Sequence record: PX104379.1
Direction: 5' to 3' (one strand)
DNA: 64,000 bases
DNA from: a phage
Shown in pieces: positions 48,366-58,338 of the stretch. The stretch's first letter is position 1; each line of letters begins with the position of its first letter. The notes under the pieces were generated by a model that saw only the letters and a list, made by a program, of their open reading frames with translations, was not told where the DNA came from and searched no databases. The translations under genes were made by a program, and so were the position numbers.

Positions 48366-48836
48366 TTAATCATGTTTCCACACCCCATCGGTATTTGACC
48401 AAAGTCGCTGATTATCTGATCCTCGCCACAGCTTTTTAGTCGGAAGATTTTTCTCATACTTCCCATCAATAATAACATCAACATATTTAAGCATTTCTAG
48501 TTGTTTAATATCTTCAAACTTATATCCTGTCCACAACCAAATGCTTTTATTGGGATAAAGATTTTTTACTGTTTGAACCACAGAGTGAATCACGTCTCTG
48601 TTATCAGGATAAAGAGGGTCACCTCCGGTTATAGTTAATCCTTCTATATAATCATTATTCAAACATTCAATTAATTGTTCTAGTGTTTCACCAGTGAATG
48701 GAATACCATTTCTAGCATTCCATGTTGATTTATTATAACACCCTTCGCATTTATGCAAACAACCTGTAACGAAAAGAACGACCCTGCATCCAGGGCCATT
48801 CACAAAATCGCAAGGATAAAATCTATCATAATTCAT
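48366..48836 (-). CDS. nrdG: anaerobic ribonucleotide reductase activating protein NrdG (radical SAM)
   Basis: 156 aa as T4 NrdG; Cys cluster CLHKCEGCYN. Confidence 0.85.
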   Translation of the reverse strand: MNYDRFYPCDFVNGPGCRVVLFVTGCLHKCEGCYNKSTWNARNGIPFTGETLEQLIECLNNDYIEGLTITGGDPLYPDNRDVIHSVVQTVKNLYPNKSIWLWTGYKFEDIKQLEMLKYVDVIIDGKYEKNLPTKKLWRGSDNQRLWSNTDGVWKHD

Positions 48837-50650
48837 TGGTGTTTAACCCTATGCATGATTTCTTTATTTTTACCGAGATTAAATCCACGTTCGTTCGGAT
48901 TTCCCAAATAACCACATGTTCTTCTTATTGTGTTCATCTTTTTAGGATCAGTTTCTCCACAAATAGAACAAACAAATCCGTTTTCAGTAGGAGTCATTTC
49001 ATGGGTACTTCCACATGTAAAACATTTATCTACTGGCATATTAACACCAAAATAATCTAAATGTTGTGCAGCATAATCCCATACGGCCTCAAGGCCTTTC
49101 AAGTTATTTTTCATATCAGGAAGTTCAACATAAGAAATGTGACCACCTGTCGCAATGAAATGATATGGTGCTTCACGAGAAATCTTTTCAAACGGAGTAA
49201 CATTTTCTTCTACTGAAACGTGGAAACTGTTAGTGTACCAGCCTTTATCAGTAACATCCTTTACACTTCCATATTTTTCTGTATCAAGTTTACAGAAGCG
49301 ATAACAAAGGTTTTCAGCAGGAGTAGAATACAAACTAAAAGCAAACCCAGTTCTTTCAGTCCACTGTTTAAGACGAGCATTCATTTTAGTTAAAATTTCT
49401 CGTCCAATATCACGACCGACAAGAATATTCAATTCGTGAATACCAATGTATCCTAGAGACACTGAACTTCTACCATTTTTAAATAACTCAATTATATCGT
49501 CATCAGGTTTAAGACGAACCCCGAATGCACCTTCTTGGTAAAGAATAGGAGCAACAGTCGCTTTAACTCCTTTTAAGGAACTAATTCTACACATCAATGC
49601 TTCAAAACACAGATCCATTCGTTCATTAAATAGCTCAACAAATTTCTGTTCATTGAATTGTGTTCCAATATAAGAATCTAACGCGATACGAGGAAGATTC
49701 AGTGTTACAACACCGAGATTATTACGTCCATCAAGAATTTCATTGCCAGTCGAATCTTTCCACACACTCAAGAAACTACGACAACCCATTGGAGAAACAG
49801 GAATAGATGAGCCGGTGATAGCTTTATTGTTCTTAGCTGAAATAATATCAGGATACATTCTTTTGCTTGCGCACTCTAGAGCAAGCTGTTTAATATCATA
49901 GTTCGGATCGTCTTTATAAAGATTAACACCTTCTTCAACAAACATAACAAGCTTAGGGAAAATAGGAGTTATTCCATCACGACCAAGACCTTTAATACGA
50001 TTTTTCAGAATTGCTTTCTGAATCATTCGTTCAGTCCAGTCAGTTCCCGTACCAAATGTAATTGTTACAAAAGGCGTTTGTCCGTTTGAACTAAAGAGAG
50101 TATTTACTTCATATTCATAAGCTTGGAATGCATCGTATACATCTTTTTCTGTTTTAGATTGAGCATAATTCAATGCATCAGCGATTTGCCATTTTTCTGC
50201 ATCCTCAATATGTTTTGCATAGGTGCGTTTAACATAAGGAGAAAGTACTTTATCTACATTAGCAAAAGTCGTTCCGCCGTATTGGTGGGAAGCAACCTGT
50301 GCAGTAATTTGTGCCATAATTGCAGTAGCAACACCGATTGATTTAGGAGTTTCAATCTGCGCATTACCTAGCTTAAATCCGTTCTCAAGCATTCCTTTTA
50401 AATCTACTAAACAACAATTAGTAAATGGAAGAGCAGGGGAATAATCAATATCGTGGAAATGAATAATTCCGCTTTCATGCGCTTTCATAATAAAAGACGG
50501 GACCATATTTTTGGCAATGTGTTTAGACACAATACCAGCCATAAGGTCCCGTTGAGTTGGAAAAACACGAGAATCTTTATTAGCATTCTCGTTTAAAAGG
50601 TCTTTATTAGTTTTATGAATCAATCCTTCAATTTCTTTTTCAATTGTCAT
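48833..50650 (-). CDS. nrdD: anaerobic ribonucleotide reductase NrdD, uninterrupted
   Basis: 605 aa; C-terminal glycyl-radical region and zinc ribbon; single continuous ORF. Confidence 0.9.
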   Translation of the reverse strand: MTIEKEIEGLIHKTNKDLLNENANKDSRVFPTQRDLMAGIVSKHIAKNMVPSFIMKAHESGIIHFHDIDYSPALPFTNCCLVDLKGMLENGFKLGNAQIETPKSIGVATAIMAQITAQVASHQYGGTTFANVDKVLSPYVKRTYAKHIEDAEKWQIADALNYAQSKTEKDVYDAFQAYEYEVNTLFSSNGQTPFVTITFGTGTDWTERMIQKAILKNRIKGLGRDGITPIFPKLVMFVEEGVNLYKDDPNYDIKQLALECASKRMYPDIISAKNNKAITGSSIPVSPMGCRSFLSVWKDSTGNEILDGRNNLGVVTLNLPRIALDSYIGTQFNEQKFVELFNERMDLCFEALMCRISSLKGVKATVAPILYQEGAFGVRLKPDDDIIELFKNGRSSVSLGYIGIHELNILVGRDIGREILTKMNARLKQWTERTGFAFSLYSTPAENLCYRFCKLDTEKYGSVKDVTDKGWYTNSFHVSVEENVTPFEKISREAPYHFIATGGHISYVELPDMKNNLKGLEAVWDYAAQHLDYFGVNMPVDKCFTCGSTHEMTPTENGFVCSICGETDPKKMNTIRRTCGYLGNPNERGFNLGKNKEIMHRVKHQ

Positions 50651-51771: not shown

Positions 51772-52092
51772 TTATAGCGTAATCCATTCTCTTACTGTCT
51801 GAGTTACTACACGTTCTCGAAGCTCAACCAGTTCAACGGTAGGAACTGCATAATACCAATCAGAATGGTAAGAACCTGAGCGAGATTCATTTACAGCCAC
51901 ATGTACATTATGTTTTGGACTAAAATAAACACACTGACGATATTGGCATTTACCATCTTGCACCCAGTCTTCTATTTCGACAGGTTTAAGATAATCGGAA
52001 AAATCGAAATCATAGTTTTCTGAAAATGCATCATGGTCTTCAATGATTTCACTCAGAACTGCATCAACATCTAATTTATTTTCAATAGTCAT
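51772..52092 (-). CDS. hypothetical protein (106 aa)
   Basis: ORF track. Confidence 0.5.
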   Translation of the reverse strand: MTIENKLDVDAVLSEIIEDHDAFSENYDFDFSDYLKPVEIEDWVQDGKCQYRQCVYFSPKHNVHVAVNESRSGSYHSDWYYAVPTVELVELRERVVTQTVREWITL

Positions 52093-52997: not shown

Positions 52998-53387
52998 TTA
53001 ATCCAAAATATTATTAGGCATTGGTTGAACACTCACAAGTTCTTTAAAGAACTCAGTAGAGTCAGGCAATTTAACCATTTCCGGAGCATGCTTACTGAAT
53101 TTATGTTTACATTGACGGCATTTATATTCAAGCTCTGGTTTACGCCAGTTAATCAATTGAACTTGTTCAGTACCGCATTCAGGGCAATTAGGAACGTTTT
53201 TAGAAGCTCTTTCACGTCGTTCAACCATAACCATAATAGCATCCCATGCTGGAGGTTTAAAATCTAAATCGTCGCAGCCGTGAATCTTTCCACGCATTTC
53301 CATATCATCTTCCTCACCAGCCATAATAATTTTAATTAAACTGGAATTACTTGAAGCTGCAATGTCTTCTAATAAACGCTTTTTCAT
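52998..53387 (-). CDS. hypothetical Cys-containing protein (129 aa)
   Basis: CPECG...CRQCKH zinc-ribbon-like pairs. Confidence 0.5.
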
Positions 53388-54313
53388 TTCAATACCTCAA
53401 TAGCATTACGTAAACCATTTGCTTTTGCATTAAGAGCTTTTAACAATTTGGTGTGTTCTGCAATTTGGGCTTCAACTTCAATCAAACGGGCATTGAGATA
53501 TTCACGTTCTTCGCTCAGATTATCAACCTTTTCTACTTTAGGCTCTTTTACAACTGTCTTATATGTATTAGGGTTCTTCAGTTTAATTAGAATGCGTGAA
53601 CTGTATAACATTGAACCATTATCTTCGGTTTCGTCATACATTTCCACTACGTCCATAATTTTTAACATCATGCGGAGTTTATAAGACAACGAACGAATAG
53701 TTTTGTTATGCTTATTAATTTCTTTAGCTGTCATGGTGCCGAGATTACGTGAGTAATAATAAGGAACCTGGATATTAATTAATACTGATGAACCACCTGG
53801 CTTGTGTGTTACTTCATCAGCAATAACCCAGTCCTTAACATGAACTGTATTTGTACGGTCATCACCCGCGGTAAACAGTTTTCGAGCATGCTTAAAAAGC
53901 ATATTCACTTGGTCATTGAATTGACAAGCAAATTTATCAGCAAATTTAGTTTCAGGAATGGTAGATAACCAATCAGCCAAATGAGTCTTTTTAACATCGT
54001 TAACAATAGTAAATTCAACCAAATCGGTTATAGATGTCTCAGATTTAATAAAGCTCGGCTTCATAAAGTTTTTAATGTTATCGTGAGCTACAGTAGAAGA
54101 TAACATACGAGAACGTTTAAACCATTCAAGCAAATTACCTAACGAATGAGAATAAGCGTTTTGAGTATCTTTACAGATATGATTTTCCTGGCCAACATAT
54201 TGAAGGAAATCACGAAGAATATTATTGATTACTGCTCTGTGTCCGATCTGATAATTACGATGTTTAGTAATAAGACTGTCAAAATAATCAATGTAATGTT
54301 TACGAGTTTTCAT
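53384..54313 (-). CDS. coiled-coil-tailed paralog family member A (309 aa)
   Basis: N-terminus MKTRKHYIDYF; mid-region IMDVVEMY; C-terminal heptad-rich segment. Confidence 0.55.
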   Translation of the reverse strand: MKTRKHYIDYFDSLITKHRNYQIGHRAVINNILRDFLQYVGQENHICKDTQNAYSHSLGNLLEWFKRSRMLSSTVAHDNIKNFMKPSFIKSETSITDLVEFTIVNDVKKTHLADWLSTIPETKFADKFACQFNDQVNMLFKHARKLFTAGDDRTNTVHVKDWVIADEVTHKPGGSSVLINIQVPYYYSRNLGTMTAKEINKHNKTIRSLSYKLRMMLKIMDVVEMYDETEDNGSMLYSSRILIKLKNPNTYKTVVKEPKVEKVDNLSEEREYLNARLIEVEAQIAEHTKLLKALNAKANGLRNAIEVLK

Positions 54314-54365
54314 GTTCTTCTCACTTGGTTAATGATTTATGCTCCGAGCCATCCTTGGCTTTAAA

Positions 54366-55367
54366 TTACTTAATTAACTGTAAAGCTTGTTCAAGACGAT
54401 CCAAGCGATTGACAGATTCTTCCCAAATCTTTTTAGCCTGCTCATATTCTTTCTGCGCTTTATTAGAAATTTCTAGAACTTCTTTATAAGCTTTTTCTAA
54501 TGCAATAACTTCTGGACGAATTTCTGCCGGTTCAGGCGAATCATCAAGATTATCCATTAGTTCCTCAAGGGTAGTTTCTTCTTTAGGAGTATTCACAATT
54601 TCCTCACATTTTTGTTGATAAATTTCTTTATCAGTAGGTGAATAAGCACATTTCACTTCACGAAGACTAATTACAATTTTATATCCTTCCCATCCGCATA
54701 TATTCTTAAAAGGATATGTATGAATATTTTCTACTGTTTCCATACAAAGTAATGCAGTCTCTAACTGACGAGTTATAGTGCTAGCAATTGAGAAAAATTT
54801 ATTAATATTCTTTTGGTTAGCGTTTGGTGTAAAAAATCCATAATTCACAAAAATAGCTACTTTATTTTCATCAAGCTCATATTCTTTTACAATAATCATA
54901 TCAGAAGCCAAAGGATGAATTTGACGATAATCGCCATAACATAATTTAGAAGCTGATTTTAGAATTTGTCCTTTGAAAAGTCTGAAATTACTAATCCAAC
55001 GACGAGTAAAAATATTCTCAGGGTCTTCTTTATTATTAAGATGATAAGAATTAACATCACCGAACCAATTATATCCTACTACATCTTTGGTTCGTTTAAT
55101 TTCTTTCCCAAAATTACCAAGAATATCCCGATTAACCAAATATGAAAGAAGACGAGACTCTTTAAAAGTTTTTTTGATAACATCTTTATCTACACGGCTA
55201 GAAATTTTACGAATTTCATGAATAAATTTAGTAGAAGAAACAATACTTGCATCAACACTATTGAGCCATTGATTGATAATAGAAAGAACGATATTTTGAC
55301 CAAACATCGGTATAGCTTTATCATCAATAACGCTGTTGAACGATTTAATATATTCGTTGCGAGTCAT
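54366..55367 (-). CDS. coiled-coil-tailed paralog family member B (~333 aa)
   Basis: Internal ATG (MTRNEYIKSF) preceded by GAGGAG; the track ORF starts 10 codons upstream. Confidence 0.5.
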   Translation of the reverse strand: MTRNEYIKSFNSVIDDKAIPMFGQNIVLSIINQWLNSVDASIVSSTKFIHEIRKISSRVDKDVIKKTFKESRLLSYLVNRDILGNFGKEIKRTKDVVGYNWFGDVNSYHLNNKEDPENIFTRRWISNFRLFKGQILKSASKLCYGDYRQIHPLASDMIIVKEYELDENKVAIFVNYGFFTPNANQKNINKFFSIASTITRQLETALLCMETVENIHTYPFKNICGWEGYKIVISLREVKCAYSPTDKEIYQQKCEEIVNTPKEETTLEELMDNLDDSPEPAEIRPEVIALEKAYKEVLEISNKAQKEYEQAKKIWEESVNRLDRLEQALQLIK

Positions 55368-55424
55368 ATTAATCTCCTCAGTAGAAAGTAAGAACATTAT
55401 ACCACATCCTTGTGGCGAAGTAAA

Positions 55425-56444
55425 CTAGTTTAGTGCATTTAGTGCGTTGTTCAGTTTAGAACGTTGCTTCGTGAGATTTTTGACTTTTTCTTGTGCTTTT
55501 TCTAGCATCTTTTCAGCTTCTAACACTTCATTGGTCGCTTTAACGAGTTCATCATCTACTGCCTTAAGAGACTTCTCAATCGCATCCGCGTGCCATTTTT
55601 CAACAGGTTTAAGACTCGGATTTTCAATAGGAAGAAAATTCGCTTTATTAAATTTCCATGCATCTTTATTACCTGAGCTATACATCCAAAATTTAGGATC
55701 GTTTGATGAGCAATTAGATAAATTTAAGTTATCTTGCACTTCCTGCTTTTTCTCTTGCGTGACTTCGTCTTTTCTCAAAAAATCATATTTAAATGAAACG
55801 ATCATATCAAGTTCATATGTTGTTGTATGTTCCCAATTTCGCTCAAAACGAGGTAAAATCTTAGACTGAACAGCGGCAACAACATCCATATACTTAAATG
55901 CTTCTGTCAACTGTGATTTAAGGCATTCACAAATTGAAAGAGAATTTTTTGTATTAGGTTTAAAGCTAATTCGTGCAGTTCTATTATTTTCTTTTAACGG
56001 TCTTACTTCCATCTGAAGAGTATAACCATCAAATTTCAGATTCTTTAAGTTAATATCAGAGCCTTTTAATCGACTAGCAGTAGACAAAATTTGCTTTAAT
56101 TGTTTACGAAATAGAGCAATAAATCTCCATTCAATACGATAATGATTTGGATTAAAAAATCCTGTTGATAAATCAACCTTACTCTGACCAACGCCTTGAA
56201 CAAATAGAGGATTTTTATAATCAATAGTTTTACAGAAATCGGTGAGCTGCTCACGAGCAGTCATTTGTGTAATATATCCCGCTTTACTAAAATGACGTAA
56301 CCATTCACTGCTATTCATATACTTAAAGTGAATGGAACTATTAACTCTATCAGGGTCTAAATTATTTTGGCACAAAAATGTCATAACATTACGGGTATAG
56401 CTGGCATTACGAACCATATCTTCAATTTGAGAACGAGTTTTCAT
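55425..56444 (-). CDS. coiled-coil-tailed paralog family member C (339 aa)
   Basis: N-terminus MKTRSQIEDM; YMDVVAAV block; C-terminal coiled coil. Confidence 0.55.
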   Translation of the reverse strand: MKTRSQIEDMVRNASYTRNVMTFLCQNNLDPDRVNSSIHFKYMNSSEWLRHFSKAGYITQMTAREQLTDFCKTIDYKNPLFVQGVGQSKVDLSTGFFNPNHYRIEWRFIALFRKQLKQILSTASRLKGSDINLKNLKFDGYTLQMEVRPLKENNRTARISFKPNTKNSLSICECLKSQLTEAFKYMDVVAAVQSKILPRFERNWEHTTTYELDMIVSFKYDFLRKDEVTQEKKQEVQDNLNLSNCSSNDPKFWMYSSGNKDAWKFNKANFLPIENPSLKPVEKWHADAIEKSLKAVDDELVKATNEVLEAEKMLEKAQEKVKNLTKQRSKLNNALNALN

Positions 56445-56452
56445 AGTGTTCC

Positions 56453-57361
56453 TTAAGATTTAAGTAAATCAACAATTTTAATTAATTTTTCACGCTCAGA
56501 TTTAGCTTTACTACTCAATCCAGATAGTCTGAAAATTTCATCGTCATACTGTTGAATAGAAATATTCAGCTCTTCAATTTGCTTATTAAAATAATCAATT
56601 TGCTCAGAATGTTTTTCATTACTGCGAACTGGTACAGGTTTTGTAGGCAATTTAGTTAAACTGGATTCATCCGGACGATAAATTAAAATACAACTTGAAC
56701 CAATCGGGCATTTAGCACCAGACACATATTCTAATGTTCCGGCTTCTTTTAAAACTTCAAAAGCTAAACAGAGATGATGCCCCATATTAACATAATCTGT
56801 AGAGCGAGCTCTGACGTAATAATCATCGCCGCGAATACTAAATTTAAAGCATTTAAGGTCTTCTGTATTATTGGTCTTAAAAATCATTTGTTTATCTAGA
56901 CCTTTAGCTAATCGAGCGCCTAATGCTAATAATCGTCGTTGATTTTCCCACAAATCTGCGATCATTTGGTCAAATGATAATTTCGGCATTAGTCGACCGT
57001 AAAGATCATAGCCTTTATTATAATTGCGAAGAATTTCACTCGCGTTAATACGAGACAACGCTCCAATTTTATTAAGGGCTTTCATGATGCGATTAGATAA
57101 ACCCATTCCAGACCCGTTTGTTCGTTGTAAATGTTTATCTAATCCAAACCCAATATCAACTTTAAATTTATCTAAAATTTCAGCATGAACATCTCTGTCA
57201 ATAACATTCAAATCCAAAGTTGGGTTAAATCTATGAAAAAATTTATCTGGCTCTCCACGACGAAGTACAGTCCATTCATTCAATTTTTTATTAACTAAAG
57301 ATTTAATTACTGCATTGACATTATTAATTACTACTGACATATTTTCCTCACTCAATTTCAA
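56453..57361 (-). CDS. coiled-coil-tailed protein D (302 aa)
   Basis: C-terminal heptad segment; weaker similarity to A, B and C. Confidence 0.5.
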   Translation of the reverse strand: MKLSEENMSVVINNVNAVIKSLVNKKLNEWTVLRRGEPDKFFHRFNPTLDLNVIDRDVHAEILDKFKVDIGFGLDKHLQRTNGSGMGLSNRIMKALNKIGALSRINASEILRNYNKGYDLYGRLMPKLSFDQMIADLWENQRRLLALGARLAKGLDKQMIFKTNNTEDLKCFKFSIRGDDYYVRARSTDYVNMGHHLCLAFEVLKEAGTLEYVSGAKCPIGSSCILIYRPDESSLTKLPTKPVPVRSNEKHSEQIDYFNKQIEELNISIQQYDDEIFRLSGLSSKAKSEREKLIKIVDLLKS

Positions 57362-57810: not shown

Positions 57811-58338
57811 TTATGCGAGTACCGTCTTTAACCGTTCTTCAAACTTCCGAAGAGTATTCTGGCGTTCAGCTCTTTGCTTTTTGTAAGTTTCAATACGCTC
57901 TGAAATGAGAGTGTATCGTTCATTTACTGATTCTTTCATAAAATCAGGAATTTCACGAGAAGCTTTAATCTCGTCAAATTTATCAATAACAGCTTGCTCT
58001 TCAGCAATTAAGTTATCATACATCAAAATATCTTTCTTGATGAACTCAATATCTTCTTGAGTTACACGAGATAATTTAGATGCTTTATCCTTTTTGTACT
58101 GTTCGTTAGTATCACGAGACCAGTGTAATGTACGATTTTTATTCGTATTTTTGTAAATTTCTACAATACCAATCTCATCGATGATAACAATCCAATTCCA
58201 ACGAGATTTATAAATTTGTCCTCCATCAACCGTGATTTCACCTCCAATTGAGATGTCATTAAAGAACTTGCTTTGTGCTTCAGATTTAAATTTACCATCG
58301 TTGTAATTTACCAAGTTGAAAATATCTTTAGCATTCAT
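57811..58338 (-). CDS. hypothetical protein (175 aa) with C-terminal coiled coil
   Basis: ORF track; GGAGG RBS after early promoter. Confidence 0.5.
   Translation of the reverse strand: MNAKDIFNLVNYNDGKFKSEAQSKFFNDISIGGEITVDGGQIYKSRWNWIVIIDEIGIVEIYKNTNKNRTLHWSRDTNEQYKKDKASKLSRVTQEDIEFIKKDILMYDNLIAEEQAVIDKFDEIKASREIPDFMKESVNERYTLISERIETYKKQRAERQNTLRKFEERLKTVLA

Follow-up and report, generated by a model that had tools for sequence, protein, structure and literature searches.

Four open reading frames (ORFs) lying in a row on the minus strand of the phage sequence record PX104379.1 raise the question of whether they form one family and what such a family could do for the phage. A preliminary description of the 64,000-nucleotide stretch analysed here (the window), made from its letters and an ORF list, had placed them at 53384-57361 and taken them for a diversified array of large paralogs, each ending in a coiled coil, and for candidates for host-range or anti-defence functions. 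Over 5.4 kb the region shares 98.8% identity with Escherichia phage 310Ecol104PP, it matches 743 T-even-type phage records, and the phage is a Tequatrovirus, a close relative of T4. Genes follow one another in the window as they do in T4 (nrdD, 49, pin, 49.x, nrdC, nrdC.1 to nrdC.11), and the four ORFs thus correspond, as orthologues, to nrdC.3, nrdC.4, nrdC.5 and nrdC.6 of that phage. The preliminary description had suggested a comparison with the nrdC.x genes of T4 and had not recognised that these ORFs are those very genes. With two gene starts corrected (see below), the four genes are as follows.

53384..54313, minus strand: nrdC.3 orthologue, 309 amino acids; phrog_1435 at E 2e-116; homologues carry PF26897; non-T4 allele class
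54366..55367, minus strand: nrdC.4 orthologue, 333 amino acids; phrog_1435 at E 2e-169; 96% identical to T4 NrdC.4
55425..56444, minus strand: nrdC.5 orthologue, 339 amino acids; Pfam DUF7235 at 413.7 bits; 92% identical to T4 NrdC.5
56453..57340, minus strand: nrdC.6 orthologue, 295 amino acids; phrog_2257 at E 2e-152; most divergent superfamily member

Direct BLASTP among the four proteins recovered nrdC.3 with nrdC.4 (25% identity over 226 amino acids, E 3e-6) and no other pair. Family profiles drew on orthologues from ten loci, which represent four genera, and on three large protein searches; when they were compared by hhalign, nrdC.3 matched nrdC.4 (probability 98.2%, E 3e-14), nrdC.4 matched nrdC.5 (92.2%, E 6e-7, over 251 columns), and nrdC.3 against nrdC.5 reached 65% (E 6e-5). 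Direct comparisons of nrdC.6 with the other three stayed at 20% or less (E 0.001-0.05, not significant), with offsets that were mutually consistent, and in a first hhalign comparison on small alignments its matches remained non-significant until intermediates were added. Word-indexed homologue searches returned T-even relatives only and added little diversity. When 1.84 billion representative proteins were searched exhaustively by HMMER with the nrdC.6 profile, only 14 came out at E <=0.001; three of them (P0286, P0288 and P0289) are distant, full-length and encoded on T4-like metagenomic contigs. P0286 and P0289 each occur once, at the syntenic position of a long contig; P0288 comes from a 1.9-kb contig showing no gene context. 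All three proteins match the nrdC.6 profile as well as that of nrdC.5 (96.0% and 96.1%, respectively, for P0288; 97.5% and 95.6% for P0289). The profile of these three sequences, all obtained from the nrdC.6 search alone (FB3), matched nrdC.6 (98.8%, E 5e-17), nrdC.5 (98.3%, E 1e-14), nrdC.4 (94.2%, E 1e-7) and, at 6% (E 0.006), nrdC.3, with the controls nrdC.8, nrdC.10 and nrdC.11 at 0.1-0.2%. FB3 was used in place of a six-sequence mixed "bridge" profile, which was dropped as partly circular, since its members are near relatives of more than one of the families. Once extended by the intermediates, the nrdC.6 alignment matched nrdC.5 (96.1%, E 3.5e-9; 83-151 of the extended nrdC.6 to 46-132 of nrdC.5) and nrdC.4 (89.7%, E 1.8e-6; 79-201 to 58-213), in both cases along the globular part and not the coil.

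Because profile matches link each family while the controls stay at 0.1-0.2%, nrdC.3, nrdC.4, nrdC.5 and nrdC.6 are, on this sequence evidence, one superfamily of tandem paralogs, which nrdC.3 joins only through nrdC.4, and nrdC.6 through the three single-copy metagenomic intermediates. The preliminary description had staked its tandem family on proper alignment of the members, and homology is what the profile alignments detected. The protein next but one to the array, nrdC.8 (57811-58338), which it had set beside the four, does end in a heptad-like helix; profile comparison detected no homology between it and them (0.2%), and it had been wrongly grouped. At the DNA level there are no repeats between the paralogs beyond a shared start-codon region, where nrdC.3 and nrdC.5 have the nucleotides ATGAAAACTCGT in common, and therefore no sign of recent gene conversion.

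The new element here is the link itself, which joins families curated as separate. In PHROGs, nrdC.3 and nrdC.4 fall together in phrog_1435, nrdC.5 in phrog_2351 and nrdC.6 in phrog_2257. In Pfam, DUF7235 (PF23882) covers nrdC.5 over residues 1-339 (model 1-307/307; 413.7 bits, cut-off 30), PF26897 is found on all nrdC.3/nrdC.4 homologues retrieved and PF26899 (Phage_T4_Y05B) on all 105 nrdC.6 homologues retrieved. The set used for our Pfam scan was without the PF26899 model, which is why nrdC.6 came out of that scan with no family. T4 NrdC.3, NrdC.4 and NrdC.6, together with the first, second and fourth of the window ORFs, thus belong to PF26897 and PF26899, two families without an assigned function that are here united with DUF7235. 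In the literature searched we found no publication that names any of these three Pfam families or links the genes nrdC.3-nrdC.6 with one another.

The short motifs on which the preliminary description had relied are shared by three of the four proteins. A MKTR/MTR start is present in nrdC.3 (MKTR), nrdC.4 (MTR) and nrdC.5 (MKTR), and nrdC.6 begins with MSVV. The mid-region block reads IMDVVE in nrdC.3, CMETVE in nrdC.4 and YMDVVA in nrdC.5, in aligned columns; nrdC.6 has no literal MDVV and carries AFEVLKE at the equivalent helix. Two further motifs are shared by all four. The first has the general form G-h-S/T-x-x-x-A-x-x-x-L-x-x-F/Y-G/N-K, and the second marks a helix end at which G145, D146 and R148 are invariant in the nrdC.3/nrdC.4 family and GARLA.G.DKQM is invariant in the nrdC.6 family. 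Their positions, all on the minus strand, are listed here.

55878..55889: MDVV block of nrdC.5, in the helix of the beta-beta-alpha-beta-beta unit
53645-53656 (nrdC.3), 54732-54743 (nrdC.4) and 56744-56761 (nrdC.6, FEVLKE): MDVV-block equivalents, from hhalign columns
56265..56279: shared motif 1 of nrdC.5 (GYITQ..A..QL..F.K), aligned columns in hhalign
54098-54112 (nrdC.3), 55143-55157 (nrdC.4) and 57050-57064 (nrdC.6): motif 1 equivalents, from hhalign
56049..56063: shared motif 2 of nrdC.5, helix end R..hL..A.Rh..G(D/S), aligned columns
53855-53866 (nrdC.3), 54924-54935 (nrdC.4) and 56888-56902 (nrdC.6): motif 2 equivalents, aligned columns

Structure prediction, which had been proposed as a check, was carried through for two of the four. 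The AlphaFold2 models of nrdC.5 and nrdC.6 are of moderate quality, the latter having a predicted local distance difference test score (pLDDT) of 76.8 and a predicted template modelling score (pTM) of 0.65, and show the same order of elements: helix-helix, strand-strand-helix-strand-strand, a low-confidence linker and a long helix. In BFVD, both models match the same uncharacterised Straboviridae proteins of 309-374 amino acids (probability 0.95-1.00), those common to the two coming from phages Mineola, Cronus, PM2 and Merlin. The heptad-rich C-terminus held for all four proteins, each of which shows the C-terminal heptad periodicity by which a coiled coil was judged: on a simple C-terminal score applied to the 84 minus-strand ORFs of the window of at least 80 amino acids, nrdC.5 ranks 1st, nrdC.6 3rd, nrdC.4 4th, nrdC.3 5th and nrdC.8 6th, and long helices are modelled by AlphaFold2 in nrdC.5 and nrdC.6. 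The array appears to follow a common architecture, in which a variable, partly disordered linker is followed by a conserved heptad helix, some 50 residues long, at the C-terminus.

Helix pair: nrdC.5 residues 104-126; nrdC.6 residues 123-144 (AlphaFold2)
Beta-beta-alpha-beta-beta unit: nrdC.5 residues 143-218; nrdC.6 residues 165-221 (AlphaFold2)
55605..55769, minus strand: low-confidence linker of nrdC.5, residues 226-280; pLDDT 25-44, least conserved stretch among close orthologues
Low-confidence linker of nrdC.6: residues 222-241 (AlphaFold2)
Acidic linker of nrdC.4: residues 246-285, isoelectric point (pI) 4.05, before the C-terminal helix
53387..53530, minus strand: C-terminal heptad helix of nrdC.3, about residues 262-309; heptad score 0.79, one continuous register
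54369..54512, minus strand: C-terminal heptad helix of nrdC.4, about residues 286-333; heptad score 0.85
55428..55604, minus strand: C-terminal heptad helix of nrdC.5, residues 281-339; AlphaFold2 helix 281-338 at pLDDT 84-92, heptad score 0.94
56456..56617, minus strand: C-terminal helices of nrdC.6, residues 242-295; AlphaFold2 helices 242-271 and 277-294, heptad score 0.86

As the preliminary description had supposed, none of the four has an obvious enzymatic motif: Pfam, NCBIfam, PADLOC and the chain sequences of the PDB gave neither an enzyme motif nor a significant match beyond the proteins' own families. In the PDB, sequence searches started from the nrdC.5 protein and from three family profiles gave chance coiled-coil matches only (such as the Myc zipper, SMC and keratin), and PADLOC only weak coiled-coil noise from BrxC and BrxF. 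The fold of the globular domain appears to have no strong match among solved structures.

The block differs from most of its surroundings in how it evolves. Most flanking genes are 96-100% identical to those of T4 (nrdC.7 is at 91% and nrdC.2 at 79%), and nrdC.3, nrdC.4 and nrdC.5 are 61%, 96% and 92% identical to the T4 proteins. The ratios of nonsynonymous to synonymous substitution rates (dN/dS) between the window phage and T4 are as follows.

nrdC.3: 0.30
nrdC.7: 0.23
nrdC.5: 0.21
nrdC.4: 0.16
nrdC.6: 0.09
Remaining genes compared: 0.04-0.13

Judged by these comparisons, the nrdC.3-nrdC.6 block evolves faster than most neighbouring genes, and the diversification that the preliminary description had noted is evident in the values of nrdC.3, nrdC.4 and nrdC.5. 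The synonymous rate (dS) of nrdC.3 is about 1.0 versus 0.05-0.22 in every other gene compared, which points to recombinational import of a divergent allele; the nrdC.3 region would accordingly be a recombinational mosaic. Within Tequatrovirus this gene has two allele classes, about 60% identical in amino acids. The window allele is nearer to the Mosigvirus homologue (76%) than to T4 NrdC.3, and the alleles of T4, RB18 and PST are about 60% identical to it. Across phage records, 358 reach an identity to it of at least 90%, 241 fall at 60-80% and 51 lie below 60%. When distant orthologues are compared, no block is better conserved than the C-terminal helix in three of the four families (nrdC.3, where it reaches 93%, nrdC.4 and nrdC.5), and the N-terminal parts and the linker are the most variable. 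Residues 161-180 of nrdC.3 are one of the variable blocks. All four genes are intact, and each occurs in about 550-740 phage records. The superfamily appears confined to T4-like phages (Straboviridae), with a copy number that varies by genus; no member was detected in the stretch examined of Pseudotevenvirus, Klebsiella phage Roth88 and an Acinetobacter phage.

Tequatrovirus: 4 copies
Mosigvirus, Dhakavirus, Gaprivervirus: 3 copies
Jiaodavirus, Karamvirus, Tegunavirus and metagenomic T4-like contigs: 1 copy, syntenic, just upstream of nrdC.2 where nrdC.2 is recognisable

Several natural variants of the array were encountered. In the T4 reference (NC_000866), nrdC.6 carries a 1-nucleotide deletion relative to window positions 56453-56540 (GAAGAGCTG-ATATT; L002 10067-10145), a frameshift that replaces the C-terminal coiled coil and leaves an annotated protein of 275 rather than 295 amino acids; another frame still encodes the full C-terminus, and the deletion is either a sequencing error or a mutation of the laboratory strain. 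The nrdC.6 homologue of Shigella phage Sf25 (P0001, 378 amino acids) contains an internal tandem duplication of about 83 residues, which takes in the latter half of the globular domain and the beginning of the coil. On a 167-kb metagenomic or phage contig, the middle of nrdC.5 is fused to nrdC.3 from about residue 138 on (P0179, 299 amino acids), which indicates a natural deletion that removed nrdC.4 and parts of both neighbours. The nrdC.5-like gene of Shigella phage SP18 (L007 6038-6942) is annotated as two ORFs, gp093 and gp092, and that of the related Gaprivervirus TH55 (L004 6980-7861) is intact, as a single ORF of 293 amino acids.

For one of the four genes a function has been published. 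According to that study (Srikant, Guegler and Laub, eLife 2022, PMC9391042), a T4 clone with deletions was unable to plate on ECOR17, disruption of the host dsr1 gene restored plating, and T4 nrdC.5 restored plating of the T4 deletion mutant on MG1655 carrying dsr1. The study deals with T4 nrdC.5 only and gives neither a mechanism nor a mention of its relation to nrdC.3, nrdC.4 and nrdC.6. The literature searched yielded nothing beyond the 2022 paper on a renamed nrdC.5 or on a published mechanism. The nrdC.1-6 block of T4 can be deleted (PMC9825161), and a 2026 preprint describes a tetratricopeptide repeat (TPR)-based sensor domain common to Avs7 and Dsr1 that recognises phage major capsid proteins (PMC12803255). 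The window ORF at 55425-56444 is the orthologue of T4 NrdC.5, at the same position and with a full-length match, and the other three are its remote paralogs; its identity to the T4 allele suggests that it too would act against Dsr1, with about 8% of residues differing between the two alleles. The host-range or anti-defence role foreseen for the array can thus be placed on a published phenotype for nrdC.5, and homology to it suggests a counter-defence role for nrdC.3, nrdC.4 and nrdC.6 as well. About 1.3 kb from the array, at 51772-52092, lies the orthologue of gene 49.2, 98% identical to that of T4. According to a 2026 report (PMC13096335), gp49.2, tested as the phage T6 protein, is an inhibitor of the OLD defence nuclease, and the stretch from pin to nrdC.6 therefore looks like a counter-defence island.

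Starting from the homology, architecture and faster evolution demonstrated here and from the anti-Dsr1 activity of T4 nrdC.5 demonstrated in the literature, we propose, with moderate confidence, that nrdC.3 to nrdC.6 are tandem paralogs encoding non-enzymatic counter-defence proteins that bind host immune sensors and neutralise them stoichiometrically. The four genes would probably be expressed early and be dispensable in laboratory hosts. We infer direct binding of the sensors, the target specificity being set by the variable, basic globular domain; the conserved coiled coil would serve oligomerisation or docking. Through duplication, the T-even phages of E. coli would have come to possess three or four specificities, versus one in other genera. 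A more speculative extension, to which we give little credence, is that the C-terminal helix is a common docking or hetero-oligomerisation module that builds a multi-specificity complex, or that each paralog plugs a different receptor with a TPR sensor related to those of Dsr1 and Avs7.

Known anti-defence proteins offer partial parallels. DSAD1 of SPbeta-like Bacillus phages, an anti-DSR2 protein, is a functional analogue, non-enzymatic and reported to counteract or repress a defence-associated sirtuin; it differs in belonging to another phage group and in its target, DSR2, whose sensor is different from that of Dsr1. DSAD1 is present in the PDB in complexes with DSR2, and neither the nrdC.5 protein and its profile nor the nrdC.3/nrdC.4 and nrdC.6 profiles showed similarity to it. 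T4 gp49.2 (against OLD), TifA (against ToxN), IPIII and AdfA are likewise small to mid-sized products of non-essential genes in hyperplastic host-range regions; in the accessible accounts they are not described as tandem families, whereas the nrdC array is a three- to four-member tandem family with a coiled-coil tail.

Some observations weigh against our proposal. The experimental evidence concerns only one member of the four, nrdC.5. The AlphaFold2 model of nrdC.5 has a pLDDT of 68, and models are at hand for nrdC.5 and nrdC.6 only. Every gene compared has a dN/dS below 1 and hence gives no direct evidence of positive selection, and nrdC.6, mostly 95-99% identical within Tequatrovirus and at the lowest ratio of the four, looks less like an arms-race gene. 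Finally, the globular domains have a strongly basic character, with a net charge of +7.5 to +12.8 and a pI of 9.2-9.65, and contain a helix-turn-helix (HTH)-like pattern, which would also fit nucleic-acid binding.

The alternative that survives best, possible though in our view unlikely, is that nrdC.5 is the sole counter-defence gene, and that nrdC.3, nrdC.4 and nrdC.6 have other accessory roles, such as host takeover or the scaffolding of nucleotide-metabolism enzymes whose genes lie close by, or are drifting to loss. The paralogs are less than 25% identical to nrdC.5, so that function need not be conserved; they are located in the nrd neighbourhood, and natural damage is on record in the frameshifted T4 nrdC.6, the split nrdC.5-like gene of SP18 and the fused nrdC.5/nrdC.3 contig without nrdC.4. 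However, the wide occurrence of four intact genes does not fit such drift, the dN/dS values of 0.09-0.30 imply that selection maintains all four, nrdC.3 undergoes an allele swapping typical of host-interacting loci, and 49.2, a neighbouring gene outside the nrd series, is like nrdC.5 a counter-defence gene.

Slightly less probable is that the four are nucleic-acid-binding proteins, whose basic HTH-like domain, dimerised by the coiled coil, would act on phage or host DNA or RNA (for example as early regulators or by shielding a nucleic-acid trigger), the anti-Dsr1 effect of nrdC.5 then being indirect. All four globular domains are basic, and in the nrdC.6 model motif 1 lies between helices 81-91 and 94-106, which are arranged as a helix-turn-helix. 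Residues 30-86 of nrdC.3 weakly matched the DNA-binding domain at the N-terminus of tyrosine recombinases, namely Phage_int_SAM_1 in Pfam (E 0.076; 13.7 bits, cut-off 22.3) and the XerD N-terminus in NCBIfam (E 0.002; 17.3 bits, cut-off 279). We rejected this SAM-like domain as a candidate, since it was hit in only one of 11 family members and far under the curated cut-offs, and neither Pfam nor NCBIfam assigned an HTH family to any of these proteins at E up to 1.

That four unrelated proteins each gained a coiled-coil tail and share short motifs by chance is very improbable and already largely refuted: the single BLASTP pair, the non-significance of nrdC.6 against the others taken alone (E 0.001-0.05) and the inflation of similarity scores by coiled coils would allow it, but the significant profile alignments lie in the globular region and not in the coil, nrdC.8 with its similar helical tail stays at the level of the other controls, nrdC.5 and nrdC.6 have the same modelled order of secondary structure, and the genes are syntenic across genera. 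With these alternatives weighed, we retain the proposal of tandem counter-defence paralogs; the observation made in the preliminary description is confirmed, and its interpretation is supported and largely right.

The gene starts and the neighbourhood of the array call for some further remarks. Two mechanically assigned ORF starts were wrong, those of nrdC.4 (55397) and nrdC.6 (TTG 57361). The real start of nrdC.4 is the annotated ATG at 55367 (MTRNEY), with the ribosome-binding site GAGGAG ahead of it, and the upstream ATG at 55397 falls within the -10 box of a strong match, GTTTAC-N17-TATAAT, to a T4-early-type promoter.

55424..55396, minus strand: T4-early-type promoter-like site before nrdC.4, TTTACT-17-TATAAT with TG extension; consensus match only

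For nrdC.6 the real start is the annotated ATG at 57340 (MSVVINN; ribosome-binding site GAGGAAAAT). Only 8 nucleotides separate the nrdC.6 stop from the nrdC.5 start, and the two genes are therefore probably co-transcribed; the order nrdC.6-nrdC.5-nrdC.4 is identical in NC_000866. In many GenBank records, nrdC.3 to nrdC.8 are labelled 'thioredoxin' or 'thioredoxin, phage-associated', a designation without support in the sequence: no thioredoxin or glutaredoxin family matched any of the four proteins in Pfam or NCBIfam at E up to 1, and the labels appear to have spread from the neighbouring gene nrdC. On the far side of nrdC.3, nrdC.2 (52998-53387) encodes 129 amino acids versus 104 in T4, with the identity of 79% extending over 78% of the length; it has weak, sub-cut-off matches to several zinc-ribbon families and is also matched by a separate PHROG family labelled 'NrdC-like thioredoxin'. 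The gene nrdD (48833-50650) is a single unbroken ORF of 605 amino acids in the window, whereas that of the T4 reference is split by a group I intron with I-TevII and adjoined by mobC. On the other side of the array, nrdC.8 is unusual in this block for its conservation, with 403 records at 99% or more, Mosigvirus at 84-85% and a dN/dS of 0.04. In one paper it is reported as down-regulated when T4 infects DRT1-expressing cells and is grouped with 'nucleotide reductases', an assignment for which we find no support in the sequence. In Jiaodavirus, Karamvirus, Tegunavirus and metagenomic T4-like contigs, a conserved family of about 260 amino acids, without a Pfam match, occurs upstream of the single-copy gene, and in three of the five loci immediately next to it; no homology was found between it and either the nrdC.3-6 superfamily or nrdC.8. 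Its members lie at the following positions.

L011: 13814-14602
L012: 14875-15648
L013: 15559-16350
L018: 5145-5924
L019: 4301-5071

The genes treated here are long-known ORFs of T4, one of them with a published role, and the superfamily link is the new part. Even in T4, the best-studied phage, nrdC.3, nrdC.4 and nrdC.6 are functionally orphan, and their paralogy with the anti-Dsr1 gene nrdC.5 therefore makes them candidate counter-defence genes. The array offers a model for how T-even phages may widen their host range, in which a binder module is duplicated and then diverges, and the two classes of nrdC.3 alleles could represent natural variants in specificity. Since the globular fold has no strong match among solved structures, a structure of NrdC.5 with Dsr1 could reveal a new way of inhibiting SIR2 immunity. 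If each paralog does plug a different TPR-sensor receptor, the T-even array would be a set of diversified receptor antagonists built on a fold without a close solved relative, and in this it would resemble the effector families that eukaryotic pathogens possess.

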